NCBI GenBank assembly: GCA_004431415.1
Contig: QPMI01000454.1
Location: forward strand, 1-64,000
From: Cyanophora paradoxa CCMP329
Lineage: Eukaryota > Plantae > Glaucophyta
Direction of reading: 5' to 3'
Length of the DNA: 64,000 nucleotides
Under the pieces are notes generated by a model, which saw only the letters and a list, made by a program, of their open reading frames with translations, did not search any database and was not told the DNA's origin. Positions 1-17,434 of the stretch are shown piece after piece. Position 1 is the first letter of the stretch, and every line of letters starts with the position of its first letter. A program made the position numbers and the translations under genes.

Positions 1-640
1 TTGGTCTTCATCTCATCAACTGCCTGCTCATCGATTTGAGTTTCTTTCTTACCAATGAACTGCTTATCTGGGAGACCAGTAATTCCCATTCTATACACCT
101 CCTTTCGCAGCATCTCCTTTAATTTCGCTCTCTCTTTCTTCTCAGAGACATACTGTTCAAGTGCACTCGATTTCGCTTCCAGATCTTTTAGTTTCGCAGT
201 CATTTCGTCCCATTGGGCTTGGGAATTCGGTGAATATTCTGTGTAGGTGCGACCTTGTAGGTGACCTCACCAGCCATGGATTGAATTACCTTGTCTGATT
301 CCTTGGAGACACCTTCACCTTTGCGAGCAAGTGAGAGATCTTGCAGACCCAGTCCTTTATCATCAGCAGCACCAATAATTCGACGAGCACCTTCACCAAC
401 TGCTTTCATCTTTGTGGCTTCGGGTGAAATATTCAATTGATCACTGGTGGATGTTTGAGGCGCTTTATCATCGGGAGATTCTTCGTAAGCAGCATTGAGG
501 GGATCTTCCTGTTGCTGTGATGCTTTCACTTCATTGACACCATTGAATTTCATGGGATCTGTGTTAATAGAACCGGTTCCAGAGGATGCAGAATATGACA
601 TAGCACCGGCAGGAACACCAACTTTGCGTTTGGAAGGCAT
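1..640 (-). CDS. Viral hypothetical protein, apparently frameshifted near 240 and running off the window edge
   Basis: ORF 200-640; a second frame continues as a charged coiled-coil-like stretch (WDEMTAKLKDLEAKSSALEQYVSEKKERAKLKEMLRK). Confidence 0.5.
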
Positions 641-668
641 TGTATATTTATTAGAAGCAGAGATTATT

Positions 669-1447
669 TTACAAACCTCTCTTATATCGCATCAGTTTAT
701 TCGAATGAACACCACTCTTGACCTCTTTGGGTGCTTCCTCTTTCTGTGGAGATGGTAGTTCATCTTCTTTCTTTTTGGGCTTCCTGTGGAACCGAGGAAA
801 TGGGAAATCTTTGACCAGATCCGCTTTATCAACATAATAGTTCACCGAATAATTTGCAGAAGACCACACAATATATTGGTAAGAGTGCACATACTCCTCA
901 AACATCTTATAGAAATCGTCCTTGTTTCGCATGATATTATATTCCTCTTCAATGGCTTCGAGTTCTTTGCGATTTGCAGCACTCAGGAACACAGCATAAT
1001 CCGAATTTACTCGAATTGTTGAAGAAACCTTCCTCAGCTTCTGTGTGATGCAGATAATCGAGATTTTCGAATGGCGACCTCTGGAATAAAGAGATCCCAC
1101 GATTTTGTCTCGGGTCAAATCAATGATTTCGTTGTCTATTAGATCATCTAAGACCACACACAGGTGATTGACAGGTTCCCTTTTTCGATTTTCTCCTGCC
1201 TTTCATCCAGTAATTTGAAATGTAAGCAGCATCCCATTTCCCGAGTTGCAATGTTGCAACTGCATCCAGAAATGATTGAAGGACGTCCACTCACAACAAG
1301 AACAGTATCAATCTTTTTCGCATCATGCAGCTGTTTCAACCAATATTTCACACATTCTGACTTGCCTGTTGCAGACTTTCCTATGAAAAGAGCACGAAAT
1401 GGTGGGGTTATCATCTCAGATGCAACAAATTCTTCTAAATCGTTCAT
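669..1447 (-). CDS. A32-like (FtsK-HerA superfamily) virion DNA-packaging ATPase, frameshifted
   Basis: Walker A PFRALFIGKSATGKS in ORF 1148-1447; Walker B VLDDL and SRGRHSKISIICITQ...IRVNSDY in ORF 669-1157. Confidence 0.9.
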
Positions 1448-1516
1448 GGCTTTGTAGATCTTTCTTATTAAAGATAGATAAAAATAACGAACTGTTACTG
1501 ATAATGGTTTTACAGA

Positions 1517-2486
1517 TTAGAGAGATAAGAGGAATTGTTTAATGCACCGCTCAATATCAGTTTCTGTGTATGGGATGCGCAAGAGTTGGATATTGTTGGC
1601 TTCACAATAGCGGGTTTTAATCTGATCACGAATTTGCAGTTGCTCAAATGCTTTTTCTCCACCAAAAACCTCTACTGGTTCGAAGTGTTGGCGACCATCA
1701 TACTCAATTGCGATTTTCAGAGCGGGAATATAGAAATCGAAGGAAGTGCTTTTGTTTTACGACAGTCTTCAAAGGTAAATTGTCTGTTGTAATCAAGCCC
1801 AATTTCTTCCAAGACTGCTTCAATTGCAAGTTCACCTTTTGAGTTCTTGCAACGAGGGCAACCTCTATTCATCAGATGATTACAAGGAAGCTGATCGAAT
1901 TCATTTGAGCATTTCATACACTTGATGGATATTTTTGTTTTCTTGTTGACATACTTGACCTTGGAATAGTCATAGCGATCTCCATGGACTTCTTTCGCTT
2001 TCTCAATAAATAATTCTGTATTATTTCGCCTGTGATGACCATTTTGTTGGAGAAAACATGCTTTGCACCCTTGCTTTCTCAAATGTGCATATGGTGCCTG
2101 CTCAAAGGTCGATTTACACCCATTACACTTGATCAGAACTTTGCTTCTTGCATTCATATATTCAACGGCAGAATAATCATATCTGTCACCATGAACTTTC
2201 TTTGCCTCTTCAACAAAGGTGCTTTGTGGCTTCTTGCGATCATCATGAAGTTGTTTATCTCTGCAAGAAGGACATCCACCATTATTAACTCTTTTAGCCA
2301 TGCAAATATGATTTCCAGCAATTGTCTCAAAGTATTCCCTGCAAGTTTTGCAAAACAGAGTAACCTTTGCATGGTATGACTTGTAAACAACCCGATCATA
2401 TCCAAATTTATCTCCATGGGCTGCTTTGCTCTTCTCAATAAACTGTTCGATCGAGAGGGGTTTCTTTGTTTTATTATTGTAGACAC
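1517..2486 (-). CDS. DUF723-like zinc-ribbon repeat protein with C-terminal Vsr/DUF559-like PD-(D/E)xK endonuclease, frameshifted
   Basis: Three HGD(R/K)xxYxxVxY...CxxC...F.Q...H...GCxxC-type repeats, then SKGE...F..C. Restoring one base near 1741 gives LPFDFYIPALKIAIEYDGRQHF...RDQIKTRYCEANNIQLLRIPY. Confidence 0.8.
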
Positions 2487-2564
2487 CTTTTCTTTAAGTA
2501 GAAATCAAGGATGAAAAATGAATCAAATTTTGCAGACTTAGGTAACAAAAACATACATTTGTGA

Positions 2565-3934
2565 TTATAGATTGATTCGCCTCAGGCCGTCCTTATCGAC
2601 TATAATGAAACTGTGCATGAGAGCACGAACATTAACAGTGATTGTCTGGTCAGAAGGCATGTATAGAGTGAGGAAAGAGGAGGAGGAGTTCGTGAGATCA
2701 ACATAGCCAGACTGGGCAATGTTGCGAATCGCTTTCTCTCCATCAACACAGAATGGTAGACCACTGAGGACATATTTGTCTGCAACCTTGTCCATATTTG
2801 AGCACTTGAAGGCATCCGCAATTAATTCGGCACCTTTGAGGAGAGGGATGGGCTCAGTAGCATAGAGACGTTGACCATTAATTTCAACAGTGAAAGTAAT
2901 GTCTTTTGAGTTAGCATGCGTTTTTAGGACACTGTGGGAACCATTGAAACCATCTATACCTGCGGCATCACGAACTGAAACAAGAAGACCATAGACAAGA
3001 CCAGAGATCTGTGACAGGTTAATACGATTTGGCTGAGCATTGCCTTTTGCAGCAAAATTGACACTGTCTACGAAACCAATATCCAGAGCAGGAATAGCCA
3101 TACCAGTGGTCTTCACCTTCTCAATGACAGTAGCAAACAGTTCATCAGAAACATTAATAGCATGCATGTAAAGACGAGGAGAAGTGACTTTAATTTCGGG
3201 GTTGTTCCAGAGATGGTGAAAGTGGTGATTTGTTGACCAACATGGGCAAGAGTAGCATTAGCAGTAGCACCAAGTCCATCATCCTCTGTCTTATCAGCAG
3301 CTGTTCCACCAACAACTGGAAGAGCACGACCACCATAAGAAGTCTCAACATAACCCTTTCCAGCATCCTTGAACCAGACAGTTACCACCATTTCTCCTGA
3401 GAGAGCACCAAGAGGTAGGTAGTGGTTTAGCCATGGGACTGGGATTTCAACAAAGAATGAACCACCAAGTCGGTTGGTTCCATGAGCAGGGATACCATGA
3501 ACCATTCCCATTGAACGCTTCTTCTTGGCGAGTTGATCCTCACTGTAATAGATAAGAGGGAAATGAGCAAGGAAATCAGAAGGCACATGGAATGTGTAAG
3601 ATCCATAGGTGATTTCAAGTCGAGAGACAAGAGCACCAACTGGGCGAACGTATCCATTGCGAACAAGGTCGGTATCACCAGCAAAAGTGACAGCTGGAAG
3701 GTCAAACGCAAGTTCGAGTTTTCCACAGAAATTGTAGCGAGGGAGCTTGAACGAAATGCGATTTCCAGCATTATTCTCGAAAGTGTTGCTTGGGTTCACA
3801 ACAACAAGAACTGGCTTCGACTTGGATTCAAGACCAAGCATGAGAGAGTTGTCCAGGAAGAACGCCTTGGCTTCTTCCGGGGTTGTTAGAGCTTCTTTCA
3901 GAGAAAGACGTTGGAGGGTCGAAGTAATATCCAT
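2565..3934 (-). CDS. Major capsid protein, NCLDV (Vp54)-like double jelly-roll, one frameshift near 3170-3200
   Basis: N-half SFKLPRY..KLELAFDLP, LVSRLEITYG, FVEIPVPW..HYLPLGAL..EMVVTVWF; C-half VEINGQRL, LPF.....QSGYVDLTN, VNVRALMHSFIIVDKDG. About 455 aa when joined. Confidence 0.8.
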
Positions 3935-3988
3935 GATTATCTCTTTTATTATACTGCAACATAAAAAATTCACCAATGATCCTTGATT

Positions 3989-4999
3989 TTACGCAAAATT
4001 CGCAATAACCGGATAAGATGGATGGGTTTCCGCCATCCTCCTCTTGAAATATTCATACACAGGATCACCAGCAGGTTCATCACCATATCGAATTTCGAAG
4101 GTGAGATGCACAGGTTGACCCTCGAAATCAATTGGTTCATTAATTGCATTCACAATGTCAACCGAAAATGTGGAAAGTCCCAGATTCTTGTTATAGTATT
4201 TATAAATCGGATGGGCTTCTGTCGAATTATAAACGACATGCTCACCATAATCTTTATCTGGAACCACGATTTTGTGGAAATATCCAGTGAGGAGACCATC
4301 ACCACATTGAACCAGATCACCCAACTCCTTTACTCTCACAAACAGAACACTATCCCTGGTCTTTTCAGGTTCAAATGAAGATATGATACCATGCACCATC
4401 GACCCAGTAAAGATACCATCAGTCAGAGTATTATAAACTTGTGATTGGATTGGTGTGTTACCATATCTCCCAGGATCAAGACCAAGCAGTCGAGCAGAAC
4501 TCAAAAACCTCTGAATCTGTGCCTGGGTTGGGTTAATTGCGGTTGAGAAAGCCAGGTAAAACGGTATGGTTGAATGGAATATAACTCGTTTCAGTGTATC
4601 ATCCCATTTGCAACGAATAGCTACTGCTGGTTCTCTCAATGCAAGTTTGGAGTTAATTACATTCACCAGTTGTTGGTGGTTTTGAATGGGTGTGCTGCGA
4701 CTTATCACAATGTGTTTCCATGATTCATAATCAGCAGCAGGTCGATCAGTTGGAATACCAGTGCTTCCTGCACCAGAAAGATATTCAGACCAATAAAGGT
4801 AGAATGCATTATCTATTGTCACATCTCCTACTTTGGTTTCACCACTCACCATGGGGATGCTGTTATAGAATTCTGCTGAGACCAGTCTTACTGCTCTTAC
4901 AAATTCATATGTGCTGGGGAGGCGAGCAATAAAACTCGAAGTAGGTCCATCTCCCGAAATTGTATTGAAAGAGCTCACTTCAATGTAATCCACAGGCAT
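3989..4999 (-). CDS. Minor capsid (penton)-like single jelly-roll protein 1
   Basis: Intact 336-aa ORF with LPSTYEFVRAVRLVSAEFYNS and C-terminal FSVDIVNAINEPIDFEGQPVHLTFEI; adjacent to the MCP. Confidence 0.7.
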   Translation of the reverse strand: MPVDYIEVSSFNTISGDGPTSSFIARLPSTYEFVRAVRLVSAEFYNSIPMVSGETKVGDVTIDNAFYLYWSEYLSGAGSTGIPTDRPAADYESWKHIVISRSTPIQNHQQLVNVINSKLALREPAVAIRCKWDDTLKRVIFHSTIPFYLAFSTAINPTQAQIQRFLSSARLLGLDPGRYGNTPIQSQVYNTLTDGIFTGSMVHGIISSFEPEKTRDSVLFVRVKELGDLVQCGDGLLTGYFHKIVVPDKDYGEHVVYNSTEAHPIYKYYNKNLGLSTFSVDIVNAINEPIDFEGQPVHLTFEIRYGDEPAGDPVYEYFKRRMAETHPSYPVIANFA

Positions 5000-5027
5000 C
5001 TTCTTTTATCTATAAACATATATTAAA

Positions 5028-5958
5028 ATGATTCGGCTGGTCAATATAGATAGCAGAGACCGATCAGATGGACAAATAGAAAACTCCTACAAAGTTTCAC
5101 TCACAACCCCAGTGACCAAACCAAGAGAATGTCGAGTTTTGTATGCAGAGATCCCCAACAGCATCTATAACTCCATTGGAACAGACCACCTTCTTGTCAG
5201 ATTCTACTACCAAGGCATCTCTGAAACCAAGCAGGTCTTCCTTCTCCCAAGTGGTTACATAAATCAAGGTCATTTCGGGTCACCACTCCATATAATTATG
5301 GTCTGAATTTCACATTTACTGGGAGCAACAATCTCACATATGCATTCAAGGTCTACTACAACCCTACCTCCTACAAATTGGAGTTTTACAGTAATGTTCA
5401 ATTCGATATGGTTGCATCTACACAGAGATTGGGTAAACTTCTTGGTGTGAGTTCAGTGGAGTGGGTGGCTTCCACTGAACAGATTTACGATTTCCCAGAG
5501 TCTGCAAGGTCTTTATATGCCCCGAGAATTTCCTTTATTTCGCAGGAATACCAATCACCCCAAACCATCCCCAATGGGGAATCACATTCACAGGATATGA
5601 ATTCGAGGCATCTCGCTTAAACTACAAGTTAGAAGCTTCCAAGATGACAGATATGAATGCAGAACAGTATTTATACATGCACATTAAAGAACTCTCCCCA
5701 TTTGCTACAAACCACAATATTGTCCCACAATCTCAACCACAGAATCAAGGAGCGATTCTCAGATTGCAATTAAGTAAAGATATTGGACAGTATGTTTATC
5801 ACAGTGGAGAGCACAGTGAATACATAAAAATAACCGATCGAAACCTTGTGATTAGAGAGTTAACAGTTGAGTTTCGCGATTATTATGGTGATCTTGTAGA
5901 TATGAATGGAATTGACAACTCATTCCAGTTAGAGTTCTTGGCTATTGGTAATGATTAA
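5028..5958 (+). CDS. Minor capsid (penton)-like protein 2 (IDSRDR family), split by frameshifts
   Basis: N-terminal VNIDSRDR...VLYAEIPNS; C-terminal YLYMHIKEL...LTVEFRDYYGDLVDMNGIDNSFQLEF; three consecutive ORF fragments. Confidence 0.75.
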
Positions 5959-6163
5959 ACCGATCCTGATAGAAGAACTCCCCATCTGTCTCGAAAATAT
6001 TAAGAATGGGACTCTTTCGATCTTCTGTATACCATCGGCGAATTGTCTTATCCCATTTAGCACCATTCTTTTTCAAGAATCTACAAAGAGTTGATCTCCT
6101 TGTAATTCGCAATCCCATCTCTTGAAAGATCTCATAATGATCTTGTATTCTTTTCACAATCAA
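5942..6163 (-). CDS. Small DUF5710-like protein
   Basis: KKNGAKWDKTIRRWY matches the GAxWDxxxxxWY motif. Confidence 0.5.
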   Translation of the reverse strand: MIVKRIQDHYEIFQEMGLRITRRSTLCRFLKKNGAKWDKTIRRWYTEDRKSPILNIFETDGEFFYQDRFNHYQ

Positions 6164-6409
6164 GATGTAAGTCCATGGAAATTGTGATATTGCTGGTTAA
6201 TCGGCATGTTTCCTTTACAGCATGATGGGAAATCGTTTGTCATTTTTTGGCGAAACGAGAGTATCTCATGAGATAGATGAGAGAATAACAGGTGTGTTTT
6301 CAGGGTTGGAGAAATCGGAGAAACATAGAGTATTGCGATTTCCGAGTTAGTTGACACTGAGAAATTCAGAATTTCAGATGGTCTTACTGAAAATGGTCAG
6401 ATAATCGGG

Positions 6410-7435
6410 TGTGACACCTATTTAATTGACTGTGACGCCTCTTTAATTGACTGTGACGCCTGTGACGCCTGTGACGCCTACTTTCAAACTTTCTAAAATT
6501 TTCAAAAATGACAGACTTCTGAAAACAGCCGTCACAGCCGTCACAGGCGTCACACCCAATTAAAAATGGAATCTATCTCTCTTACTGGGATATTCAAAAA
6601 TATATTCTTGTCTTACTGAAATCCGTCTTGTGACACCTCTGACACCTACAAAACACTATCCATTAATCCACCTTCTCGAAAATGCGAAGTTGTCTTACTG
6701 GAAATGGTCTGCAATTTCGCTGTGACACCTAAATTAATTGAGTGTGACGCCTGTGACGCCTGTGACGCCTACTTTCAAACTTTTTAAAATTTTCAAAAAT
6801 GACAGACTTCTGAAAACAGGCGTCACAGCCGTCACAGGCGTCACAGACATTCTGCCCCCTTACTACTCTTCTCAAAAACAGAAATATATCTTACTGAATA
6901 TCATTTGAATACTATCTGTCACACTTGATTTCATTTATTCTGTTTTATAGAACATCTGCAATCTAATCGATTGATCAATTGGAGACCATGCAACTCTGTG
7001 ACACCTAAGTTAATTGAGTGTGACGCCTGTGACGCCTGTGACACCTACTTTCAAACTTTTTAAAATTTTCAAAAATGACAGACTTCTGAAAACAGGCGTC
7101 ACAGCCGTCACAGGCGTCACAGCCGTCACAGGCGTCACAGACATTCCACCCCTCTTACTGACTTTCTCAAAAACAAAACTATCTCTTACTGAATATCATT
7201 TGAATACTACCTGTCACACTTGATCTCAATTATTCTGTTTTATAGAACATATGCAATATAATCGATTGTTTAATTGGACGTGATGCAGTTCCGATATATT
7301 CCAATAGAAAATCCCGCAATCTGATCGATTGTTTAATTGGACATAATGCAACTCTGTGACACTCTTTCGGTGCAAAAATGTAAATCCGCAATTCCATCGA
7401 TTGTTTAATTGGACATAATGCAACTCTGTGACAGT
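6410..7435. repeat. Subterminal repeat array: three ~280-310 bp units, each with tandem TGTGACGCC 9-mers facing inverted (G/C)CGTCACAG 9-mers across a conserved AT-rich spacer, then ~4 copies of an ATCGATTGTTTAATTGGAC..TGCA motif
   Basis: Units start near 6410, 6721 and 6997 and share the spacer TACTTTCAAACTTTYTAAAATTTTCAAAAATGACAGACTTCTGAAAACAG. Confidence 0.9.
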
Positions 7436-7759
7436 TTTTGCGTTTTCCGATACAAAATGGGCGGTGGTCTACTTCAATACCGATGAGATATATCGAGTTT
7501 ATGCGAATTTATGCGAATTTATGCGAATTAATCGCGATTATATCGTTCTTTAAGTAGTTTAATGTTAATCAATCGAAGTTATATATGTAATCGACAAAGA
7601 ACATAATTTATCGATATAATATCGATTGAATCAATCGTGAATATGCATTAAATTAAACGCGTTTATCATTTTTAATACGAAGTTTGCATTAATTTATACA
7701 AAGTTTGCATAAAAAGTTAAAGAAATTAATCGATAAATATGTATTTTAGTATTAAATTA

Positions 7760-7854
7760 ACACATATTGAAAAACGAATTTAAATCCAGAGTGAATCGAG
7801 ATCGCGAAGCGATCGAGATGAACGAGGGATTTAAATTCGTTTTTCAATATGTGT
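7760..7854 (+). repeat. Terminal 95-nt hairpin/palindrome of the viral element
   Basis: 7760-7787 is the exact reverse complement of 7827-7854 (28 bp); the apex is GATCGC-GAA-GCGATC at 7800-7814. Confidence 0.95.
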
Positions 7855-9831
7855 GCTGTGGTGGATCAGGAAGGCCCCGTACGTGATCCGCACCACCGCC
7901 GAGTAGGGGAACATGTCGAGCCCGCGCCTGAAGATGTTCTCCGCGATCTCGACCGCCCGCGGGCTGCTGTGCTCCTCCAGGAAGCGCGTCGCGACCTCGA
8001 CGTGCCAGGCGCGGTCCAGCGCCAGGCCGTAGGCCCGCCCCGTGCAGAGGTACCGCCGGTAGTAGAAGCCGCAGTAGTAGTAGCCGAGGGCGCCGGCGGG
8101 GACGATGCCGAGGATCATGAGCGTGTAGAAGGCGGCGGGCGTGGTCGACTCGCGGAGCCGCTTGTCGGCGGCGCCCTCGAGGAACATGAAGATGGAGATC
8201 CACAGGAAGGCAGCGTACGACGCGCAGCGCAGCTGGTTCATCCACAGGCGGAAGAAGGGGTAGTATCTACGCACAAATGTTTAAGACTGAATACAAAAAG
8301 CGGGCCCATGACCATGACAAGGCACGCACGCGAGGACCGACCAGAGGGCGGCTGCGACGCAGGCGACGGAGAGGGCGCCCGTGAGCGTCTGGTTGAAGTC
8401 GGTGTAGCAGAGGACGACCTGGACCGCCAGCATCGCCGTCAGGTTCATGAGCTCGCTGCGCGACTGCCCGCGGTTGAACCAGACGCCCTTGCTGTACGGG
8501 TTGCTGCGCCCAGGACAAGTCAGGGTCGTCGCGTGGCGCTGGCCCGGCGGCCTTGGATGCATGCGCAGGCCATGCTCGCCTCTCATAGTAGAAGAGGCCT
8601 GCACTCGGCACAGGCATTCACGATATCGATTAGTCGACGAACGTCAGAGCGCGAAATATTCGCGGTTCGATATTTCGCGATCGCGGACCGTAGCTGTACG
8701 TGAGCAGCAGGAAGGCGAAAGCGGTGACGCCCGTGACGGCGCACATCATGACGTGGTAGGCCCCCCAGCACGTCACCTCGGGGAAGCTGCGCGCGCCCGT
8801 GGCGGTCAGATCTAGAGAGAGCGAAGCCCTCGAGCCGAGGGTGGGGGCCGGGACCTGTAGTGGGGGGTCCGCCCGAGGCCCGGGCTGCGGCAGTCGTAGA
8901 CCTCGAGGAGGACCACCAGAAATGGGATGTAGACCGCGTTCGGGAACACTGCGCGCGCCGATAGCGATATCGATATCGATCCAGGCCCAGGGGGGGACTC
9001 GAGCTCGCGATCGAGCGCACAGTGCCCGAAGACGCGGAGGTAGCGCAGGGGGAACTTGAACTTGAAGCTGCAGGCACAGGGCCAGGGCGTCGGCGCGGTG
9101 AAGTACGAGACGAGTGGTTCAAGGCCCCGCACCTGTGCATGCTAAAGGCGTACCCCACGTACGCGGCGTTCATCGCGGCGATCCAAATGACGGCGGAGAC
9201 GAAGCCGTACAGGATCGTGAACCTGCGCGCACGCGCGGAATTCAACTTCCCTTCGGGCGTGAGACGGAGCGGGTCTGGGCCAAGGATGGGCCCACCGCTC
9301 CCAGGTCCACCAGACGCCGTCGAACCGGAACCAGTCGTGGAGGAAGTGGCCCAGCTCCTGTGGGCGCCGGGGGCGCGGCCGGGGTGATCAGGAGACGGGC
9401 GCCGGTCAATTGCAAGCAGGGCAGGCGGACTCGGGGCGGACCGTGTAGGGCCCGCCCCAGGGGACGGGGTTCCCGTTGACGCCGGGGAGCCCCCAGAACA
9501 TCATGCACATCGCTGCGGGGGCGCGGCGTGAGGGCGACGGCGACCTCGGGCTCGGCGGGGCGGGGCGGGCCGGCGAGGGCGCACGCATGAGGAGGACGAA
9601 GGTGACCTGCACGACGAGGTCGAAGACCTGCCAGCGCCTGCTCCGGCTCGTGTCTTTAATGGCCACCAGGGCGATGCCGAATATAGTCGTGCGGACGGAC
9701 TCCAGGGCGACGCGGACTTCCCCGATCGCCCCGGGCGCCTCCGTCCGACTCGAGGCCCACGACCCCGCCTGCGAGCCGCCCCCGTGCGACGAGGCGCCAT
9801 CCCCGCCCGCCTTCCTCCGCCGAACCACCAT
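7855..9831 (-). pseudogene. 5' part of a multi-exon TmcB/TmcC-like multi-pass membrane protein gene, interrupted by the viral insertion
   Basis: Several TM exons followed by YYPFFRLWMNQLR...WHVEVATRFL...AENIFRRGLDMFPYSAVVRITYGAFLIHHS, which runs straight into viral DNA. Start position uncertain. Confidence 0.6.
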
Positions 9832-16056: not shown

Positions 16057-16835
16057 CCGGCCCCTGCCCTCGGCCCGCCCCCTTCCGAAATTACTCCCCC
16101 GCGCGCCGGCCCGCCCCCTCCTCCCCCGCGCCCCCCCCCCCCCCCCCCCCCCCCCCTTTTTTTCAAACTCCCCCGCCAGGCTGTGTGATAGGCCTAGGGC
16201 GCAGTGTAAGTGACCTGTGGACCCCTCGCTTCCTTCGACCTTCCTTGACAGCCTGTCCGAATCCGCGCCATATCATGATTGAATGAAGGCTGTCTATATA
16301 TAGTTCTGCAAGCTTTTCAAAGGGAATCTATCACTGAATCACTGACTCTAGCTTAAGATCACTGAATTGAATATCTACACGTATACTCATTATATAACCT
16401 TCAAGCCTGCAATTACATGGAAACATGCATATGCATGCGCTGCGCGTGCACGTCTTTCCCCCCGGCCTTTATAAGGCTTCCCATGCATGCATATGCGCAT
16501 GCAAGCACGTGCACTGCGGCATGCGCAGCGCTAGCTGCTGTTCCCCTTTCCTCTAGATCCGGGCGAGGCCCCTTGAGCTTCGAATTCGATTCATCACTTC
16601 GGGTTCAGGATCATCACTAGTAGTAATGCAATTTCTATTTTCAAAATTGCATTATCACCAACTCGAGCTCATTGATTCGAATCTGTAACTTAGTAACCTC
16701 ATCTCATCATGATCATGATCATCCCCTCCACTACAACTAGAGCTACTAGGGATTGCATGCAATTTAGATTTGCACTGGTAGTGATTTTGCAGATCTAGAT
16801 CTAGATCGAGACTTCGAATTCTTCAGGCTGGCAAA

Positions 16836-17434
16836 TGTTGCGTGCAGTGTGAGGACCCGGGATGATTCGGGGAATCACTAGCCTCTCGCGAGATGGCCTA
16901 TTGGTAGAACTGCCGCCTTGACACCCCTTAGTCGTTGGTTCGACTCCGGCTGGGTCCGGGTCGCAACGCGTCCATAACATGGGGGCTGCTAACGGACCTG
17001 GTTCGACTCCCGACGAGGGATAGACCGGGCTTCGAATCCCACGCGGGGCGCTAGGAAGCGCTGGCTGAGGGCCGCTGCATCGCGGTACCCCGATAAGCCC
17101 GGCACCTGCATCGGTGGCCGCCGAAGAGCCTAGAAACTGCGCGCACGGAAAAAAGCGGCAGTTGCGGCTGTGTGAAGTGGGTGTCACGTGCGGCATGTGA
17201 CCGAGGTTGAGATCGCGAGTTGTGAGGTGAAATGCAGCAATGGAACCGCACGGAAGGATCTCGGGGTCGAGATCACCGTGGCGGGGGGGATGTTGCGTGC
17301 AGTGTGAGGACCCGGGATGATTCGGGGAATCACTAGCCTCTCGCGAGATGGCCTATTGGTAGAACTGCCGCCTTGACACCCCTTAGTCGTTGGTTCGACT
17401 CCGGCTGGGTCCGGGTCGCAACGCGTCCATAACA
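16836..17434 (+). mobile_element. Non-autonomous LTR retroelement in miniature (TRIM), 599 bp
   Basis: Two identical 144-bp TG...CA direct repeats (16836-16979, 17291-17434); 4-bp TSD CAAA (16832-16835, 17435-17438); PBS TGGGGGCT at 16980; polypurine tract GGCGGGGGGGA ending at 17290. Confidence 0.92.
16894..16957 (+). promoter_or_regulatory. tRNA-like Pol III internal promoter within the 5' LTR (second copy 455 bp downstream in the 3' LTR)
   Basis: A-box-like TGGCCTATTGG at 16894-16904 and B-box GGTTCGACTCC at 16937-16947 with tRNA-like spacing; T-arm GTTGG-TTCGACT-CCGGC. Confidence 0.7.

Follow-up and report, generated by a model that had tools for sequence, protein, structure and literature searches.

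An endogenous Polinton-like virus in the genome of Cyanophora paradoxa ends in a hairpin whose mismatches are all G·A

A Polinton-like virus integrated in the genome of Cyanophora paradoxa CCMP329 (Glaucophyta) ends, where it meets host DNA, in a 95-nt hairpin in which every mismatch is a G·A pair. Two tandem G·A blocks and the GCGAAGC apex of this hairpin belong to the strand that abuts the host with its 3' end. The mismatch pattern is the best evidence found, as far as sequence goes, that the ends of such viruses may be selected as folded single-stranded DNA. We lean with modest confidence towards a terminus that acts in this folded form, in which the 3' end snaps back and primes or caps replication, and an integrase joins the end to the host. 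The window, i.e. the whole stretch of DNA that was analysed, has 64,000 nucleotides (GenBank assembly GCA_004431415.1, contig QPMI01000454.1, positions 1 to 64,000), and its features are collected in Table 1.

Table 1. Features of the viral element, its terminal hairpin and the adjoining host exon, in positions of the window
Feature	Position	Strand	Remarks
A32-type packaging ATPase gene	669..1447	-	two frames; PF04665, E 1.2e-6; 84% and 68% identical to full-length P0009
Zinc-ribbon/HNH-type endonuclease gene, fragmented	1717..2486	-	PF14311; 1717-2301 matches phrog_559 HNH endonuclease, E 2.7e-36
Major capsid protein gene	2565..3976	-	two frames; pieces 55% and 65% identical to P0001
336-aa ORF adjoining capsid gene	3989..4999	-	no Pfam or PHROG family; single-sequence model pLDDT 36
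Three short ORFs, probably one broken gene	5028..5958	+	no family at useful E-values (Pfam, PHROG)
Non-coding repeat-rich subterminal region	6360..7759	.	three ~127-nt palindromic units, 54-nt and 10-nt repeats; multi-copy, variable over 7200-7759
Terminal hairpin of the element	7760..7854	+	+ strand (3' end at host junction) is the G·A/GAA strand; from the fold and contigs of runs X1 and X4
Left arm, perfect 28-bp stem	7760..7787	+	pairs with 7827-7854
Hairpin tip	7788..7826	+	one 3x3 purine loop, two pyrimidine-GA-purine tandem blocks, 6-bp stem, GCGAAGC mini-hairpin apex
GCGAAGC mini-hairpin apex	7804-7810	+	within the tip
Right stem arm	7827..7854	+	final base adjoins host DNA
Host exon cut by the insertion, TmcB-like gene	7855..8274	-	frame continues 7 codons into the hairpin, then stop

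When the two arms are paired in register, all 28 positions of the stem (7760-7787 against 7854-7827) form base pairs, and pairing is lost immediately outside the hairpin, at 7759/7855. Five of the 12 positions above the stem are Watson-Crick and the mismatches are G·A or A·G without exception (7/7), one at 7788·7826 and the others in three tandems at 7789-90/7825-24, 7793-94/7821-20 and 7798-99/7816-15. Beyond this zone follow 6 bp and then a 3-base GAA loop closed by C-G. The folding energy of the hairpin is -35.5 kcal/mol (z = -11.3), and no shuffled sequence was equally good (0 of 200). An earlier note, made from the letters of this DNA, had described a symmetric 95-nt hairpin with a 28-bp stem, seven G·A mismatches and a GAA loop, and the in-register pairing and the folding z confirm it. 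The same note held that the complementary strand folds poorly, which does not stand for the hairpin as a whole: ViennaRNA gives -34.3 and -32.9 kcal/mol for the two strands, only 1.4 kcal/mol apart, because the 28-bp stem forms on each. What stands is an asymmetry restricted to the tip, where strand specificity may be expected on the basis of published NMR and melting work. An RNA role for the hairpin was rejected, as Rfam gave only sub-threshold matches to microRNA precursors, which are usual for long stems, and the chemistry of the palindromes is of DNA type.

The two 2x2 loops of the tip are symmetric pyrimidine-GA-purine blocks, TGAA/TGAA and CGAG/CGAG, which stand in mirrored order with a complementary T·A spacer; in this mirrored order they are therefore not the product expected from tandem duplication. 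According to NMR work, the pyrimidine-GA-purine context gives tandem sheared G·A pairs (PMC10085684), and GA-AG steps show very strong stacking in melting data (PMC8163305). Moreover, the GCGAAGC mini-hairpin has a Tm of 76.5 C and is nuclease-resistant, and related forms are reported at phage and plasmid priming sites (PMC13037366). Judged by its sequence context, the 3'-terminal strand of the element is thus predicted to carry sheared G·A pairs and a GNA loop.

From base composition, the chance that all seven mismatches fall into the G·A class (C·T when the other strand is read) is about 7e-6, a value on which a factor of several should be allowed, as the G·A class was picked after it had been seen. 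Under decay by single substitutions the chance is also about 7e-6, and this is a maximum which becomes smaller with transition bias, because each G·A mismatch needs a transversion. As a control, the 13 mismatches in the three other long palindromes of the element include no G·A at all (8 A·C and 5 C·C). These numbers bear on the possibility, for which it counts that fold-back events are common at linear DNA ends, that accidental fold-back copying made the palindrome, which later decayed and spread passively with the family. Annealing by accident was also offered as an alternative for the palindromes of Halocafeteria viruses (bioRxiv 10.64898/2026.07.28.741278). However, fold-back yields a perfect palindrome and its decay favours transitions scattered over the stem, whereas the 28-bp stem here is perfect and all seven changes are G·A and lie near the tip. 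A second tip found on the same stem, described below, keeps the same purine-purine grammar. An accidental origin is largely refuted by these observations, and we consider it very improbable.

Bases 1-7854 of the window form a low-GC island (0.39-0.44 per kb, compared with 0.54-0.85 beyond) and are the end part of an endogenous Polinton-like virus. This identity follows from the double-jelly-roll capsid, the A32 ATPase, the multi-copy low-GC island and the interrupted host gene. For the capsid, a model of P0001 (pLDDT 58) matches double-jelly-roll capsids in Foldseek, with the best E-value (1.8e-18) for the PBCV-1 capsid. The statement that the hairpin ends a small integrating virus is therefore borne out by the capsid and A32 ATPase genes and by the cut host exon. 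By its position, the ORF adjoining the capsid gene may be minor-capsid-like, and the three short ORFs on the opposite strand may be minor-capsid-like as well. The ATPase, the capsid, the nuclease and one capsid-neighbouring gene, between 669 and 5958, are each split over several frames, through either read errors or decay. Among the ORFs in the 7.85 kb of the element that lie inside the window, Pfam and PHROG searches gave no replicase, integrase, nickase or resolvase; neither an HUH Rep nickase nor a terminal protein with Tap-like primase was found among the ORFs of the window.

The subterminal region at 6360-7759 is likely a terminal inverted repeat, with its partner end beyond the window. 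Each of its three units of ~127 nt (6429-6564, 6720-6846 and 6996-7122) is palindromic, with 9-nt repeats on both sides of a 33-nt spacer. The only mismatches in these units are A·C and C·C when the + strand is read, and thus G·T and G·G in the complementary strand. Within the terminal repeat, the units are candidates for an array of protein-binding sites that would serve as origin or promoter. Outside the element, the sole other stretch below 47% GC is 16250-16850.

In order to follow the copies of this end, contigs of sequencing runs were used. Fourteen of the 24 listed runs contain at least half of the words of 1-8600, and four runs, which may be one strain, were compared over 7200-8300; rare variants are lost from the run contigs, and the listing leaves out differences close to the ends of a contig. 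No RNA data set containing the element was among the runs listed, which counts neither way for transcription. At the host side, GC changes from 0.21 at 7560-7759 to 0.64 at 7855-7954. A contig of the host flank at single-copy depth begins at 7829 with no differences in all four runs and joins the 26 last viral bases to the flank, which is fewer than the 31 required for a bridge. Two contigs of run X9 track the window to 7856 and then enter other GC-rich DNA. Taken with the flank contig, their divergence therefore places the stop of the shared multi-copy DNA at 7854-7856. With 20-80 sites, chance agreement of a few letters of the flank is to be expected. That the palindrome stops exactly at the host junction, as had been claimed, agrees with this within 2 bases (7854-7856), but is not provable to the base.

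The interrupted gene was recognised by comparison with C. paradoxa gene models. P0010 is 100% identical to the exon at 7855-8274 and ends in seven residues translated from the hairpin, whereas its paralogue P0012 extends ~200 aa further, into PF25474 (TmcB TPR domain); therefore, the virus cut a host exon. Another gene model, P0011, comes from a second contig and passes from the host exon into a heptapeptide encoded by viral repeats, which suggests that the same host-virus join was assembled twice. In runs X1 and X9, a contig near single-copy depth omits 180 bases of the host exon (8047-8228), and it probably represents a paralogue.

Among the contigs listed, the tip is carried with no differences by contigs that cover 7762-7853 in X1 and 7760-7853 in X4. 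Their depths are 2683 (X1) and 2852 (X4), compared with 67 and 35 for the host flank, and these ratios of 40 and 82 are a sign of tens of ends, not a copy number. In the contigs listed for the four runs, alternative letters occur at 37 places in 7290-7725, with 16 within the 230 bases preceding the hairpin, while none occurs at 7726-7865 in any of the four, compared with 6.6 expected per 95 bases. Random variation of the mismatches among copies, which would have spoken against the earlier note, is thus not seen: the tip is unchanged at high depth and the neighbouring repeat DNA is variable. This constancy is partly expected if the copies are young.

The same runs contain a second tip, consisting of repeated GCGAAGC units on the same stem. 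Among the loose ends listed, it departs behind 7789 (X1) and rejoins before 7824 (X1 and X9), and its non-Watson-Crick positions, read by eye in register from the stem, are all purine-purine. There is also a sister family (X1 and X4; depth ~800) with a loose end behind 7755. It has the subterminal DNA in common with the element, and its stem begins with the same 8 bases, after which 5 of 17 bases differ. It probably represents a second family of elements that makes use of the same integrase site. Since the tip is unchanged at depth and a sister tip occurs on the same stem, the hairpin is neither an artefact nor a product of decay. A fold-back chimera at the contig junction, arising in assembly or library preparation, could have been suspected from the frameshifted genes of the element, which resemble an error-prone long-read consensus. 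However, short-read contigs carry the tip with no differences at high depth in X1 and X4, the join between the last 26 viral bases and the flank recurs in 4 of 4 runs, and P0011, from its second contig, also passes from host exon into viral repeats. The short-read tip contigs refute such a chimera as far as contigs can, and we regard its probability as negligible.

The orientation of the tip can be judged from one run. If words of 31 letters are assumed, a tip in the flipped state, or a junction made by fold-back, should cause branching at 7787/7788. A contig of X4 (7695-7788) passes this point unbroken, and the joints listed include none that changes strand. With one run, and with rare forms dropped, this leans against flip-flop, i.e. 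there appears to be no common flipped form of the tip. Such a result is relevant for a covalently closed telomere of the poxvirus or asfarvirus type, in which a resolvase or protelomerase would resolve concatemers, the mismatches would serve protein binding or packaging, and an integrase would nick the stem base. The incompletely paired hairpin at the very end is compatible with this, the integrated form corresponds to a hairpin opened by a single nick, and the mismatches of vaccinia are described as needed for virion maturation (PMC8956199). Symmetric resolution, however, should yield both G·A and C·T tips, against which stand the unbroken X4 contig and the listed joints, and no resolvase is present among the window ORFs. 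A closed telomere therefore seems unlikely to us. The earlier note had left the choice between a hairpin telomere and a single-stranded end that folds and serves replication or integration; the latter is the best reading, while a closed telomere of poxvirus type has so far no support. According to the same note, the integrated copy looks like a hairpin nicked about 46 nt from the apex and unfolded, with which the sequence is compatible.

For a terminus acting as folded single-stranded DNA, we infer the following course of folding, priming and integration. Once the genome is free or excised, the 3' end of each strand would for a time be single-stranded and fold into the hairpin, zipped by the sheared G·A pairs and the GAA mini-loop. 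The last base of the folded 3' end would be paired to 7760, so that it could serve as a primer for inward synthesis and as a nuclease-resistant cap. The G·A pairs would bias folding to the 3' strand and keep the arms unlike in the duplex, which would lead to one orientation and no flip-flop. An integrase, probably of the rve type, would then join the same 3' end to host DNA, and repair would copy the opened hairpin and leave the whole palindrome flush with the junction. The rve type is proposed because of the statistics of glaucophyte Polinton-like viruses, of which 85 of 156 have PF00665 (rve) and none has a tyrosine recombinase (PMC12220804 Table S6; columns matched here).

In the same table, again with columns matched here, 49 of the 156 have a protein-primed polymerase domain and ~40 a D5-type primase-helicase (PMC12220804). 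If the present family carries a protein-primed polymerase, self-priming is unnecessary, and these counts favour another role of the fold, namely a signal bound by a primase, a terminal-protein complex or an integrase instead of a primer. The chemistry is indeed as at Streptomyces telomeres, where Tap binds G·A-closed hairpins (PMC4513846), primases bind mini-hairpins at phage and plasmid origins (PMC13037366), and the tips are exchangeable on one stem. On the other hand, the last base is paired, so that a protein primer would find no single-stranded 3' tail as template, and the window ORFs include no such protein. We rate this protein signal as possible, though rather improbable. More far-reaching than a self-priming end as such is the idea that the lineage replaced protein priming by parvovirus-like single-orientation rolling-hairpin replication, with the integrase opening or taking the hairpin 3' end at the stem base, which we offer tentatively and as a minority view. 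If true, Polinton-like viruses would have a distinct mode of replication and integration, with exchangeable tips selected as single-stranded DNA structure and G·A-zipped hairpins at both genome ends.

In searches for relatives, none of the element was found in viral contigs (with the window capsid, P0002 and alignment A3 as queries), in metagenome contigs or in phages. Exact tip patterns gave 0 matches in viral and metagenome contigs, and a pattern of stem end and apex gave 7 matches, none of which folds like the Cyanophora hairpin (0 of 7). A triple GCGAAGC motif occurs at 8 loci, none shown to be related to the element; L007 resembles a small tailed phage by its ORFs, L003 occurs with a phage terminase, two are giant-virus bins, and these were rejected. 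L001 (3351-3455) and L005 (10001-10126) contain ~15 and ~18 copies of GCGAAGC in tandem. Both arrays lie in viral contig stretches that are AT-rich and poor in genes, at 3-4 kb from the ends, and each folds into a long hairpin in which 3x3 purine loops recur. The 16-kb contig of L007 has, 35-120 bases from its end, a branched hairpin that is rich in GC and includes GCGAAGC units (L007 9985-10070).

Among openly accessible papers and the main texts of preprints, no description of G·A-paired, strand-biased ends of Polinton-like viruses or virophages was found. By word look-up, 'hairpin' occurs 0 times in the main texts of PMC12220804, PMC10120064, PMC8547959, 10.1101/2022.07.28.501842, 10.64898/2026.06.19.733378, 10.64898/2026.10.13.758929 and 10.1101/2025.10.09.676808. 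Matches to this word in PMC12747079 and PMC11296320 concern giant viruses in the passages matched, and were rejected as precedents. By this literature, terminal palindromes in such viruses are known (2026), and what is new here is that an end of this kind has G·A chemistry. It is an open question by what means Polinton-like viruses that lack a protein-primed polymerase replicate and protect their ends, and the text of the sole report of end palindromes could not decide between function and accident (bioRxiv 10.64898/2026.07.28.741278). A tip which is all G·A on the 3' strand and constant in many copies, together with a second tip following the same rule, is hard to obtain accidentally. The G·A tip also offers a simple signature, for which the termini of known endogenous elements, numbering in the thousands, could be scanned.

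Among ends of linear replicons, the left end of MVM has a single orientation and a G·A bubble. The 3' single-stranded ends of Streptomyces replicons carry the grammar of sheared G·A pairs and GNA loops and resemble parvovirus 3' ends (PMC4513846). The Cyanophora end shares with these Streptomyces 3' overhangs and with the 3' hairpins of autonomous parvoviruses the sheared G·A pairs and GNA loops, predicted here, on the 3'-terminal strand of a linear replicon. However, those ends, which are found in bacteria or in viruses with ssDNA, are branched and act together with Tap/Tpg or an HUH Rep, whereas the Cyanophora end is one straight hairpin of an integrating double-jelly-roll virus.

As in the poxvirus telomere, the terminal hairpin is incompletely paired and its mismatches may matter (PMC8956199). 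Poxvirus telomeres, as described in that paper, are covalently closed, occur as flip and flop isomers, have extrahelical loops and do not integrate, in contrast to the symmetric G·A pairs of the Cyanophora end, which shows no common second isomer and is known from the integrated form alone. The element as a whole is like the endogenous Polinton-like viruses of protists, including the 156 of glaucophytes, in its low-GC island, its capsid and A32 ATPase genes and its long repeat-rich end (PMC12220804). Unlike here, the ends of those elements are undescribed at this level in the main text of that study, where 'hairpin' and 'palindrom' both occur 0 times.

A close comparison is with Halocafeteria seosinensis, for which terminal palindromes beside target duplications and a hairpin-priming model are reported in virophages (subtypes 1, 2, 5 and 6) and in Polinton-like virus subtype 4 (bioRxiv 10.64898/2026.07.28.741278, July 2026). 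With this report of terminal palindromes in virophages and a Polinton-like subtype, the contrast that had been drawn with 'open-ended' Polintons and virophages is dated. Like the Cyanophora hairpin, these palindromes mark the outer limit of the terminal repeat in a small DNA virus that has integrated. For the Halocafeteria palindromes, priming by the hairpin was proposed, and the text links them to RVE integrases and non-pPolB replicases. Unlike the Cyanophora hairpin of 95 nt with seven G·A, those palindromes have 52 nt and were found with at most 4 mismatches, whose type and strand are unstated in the text and may be shown in figures or supplements. Together with its length and the seven G·A pairs, the GAA mini-loop and the apparently single orientation of the Cyanophora end argue against the alternative of accidental annealing.
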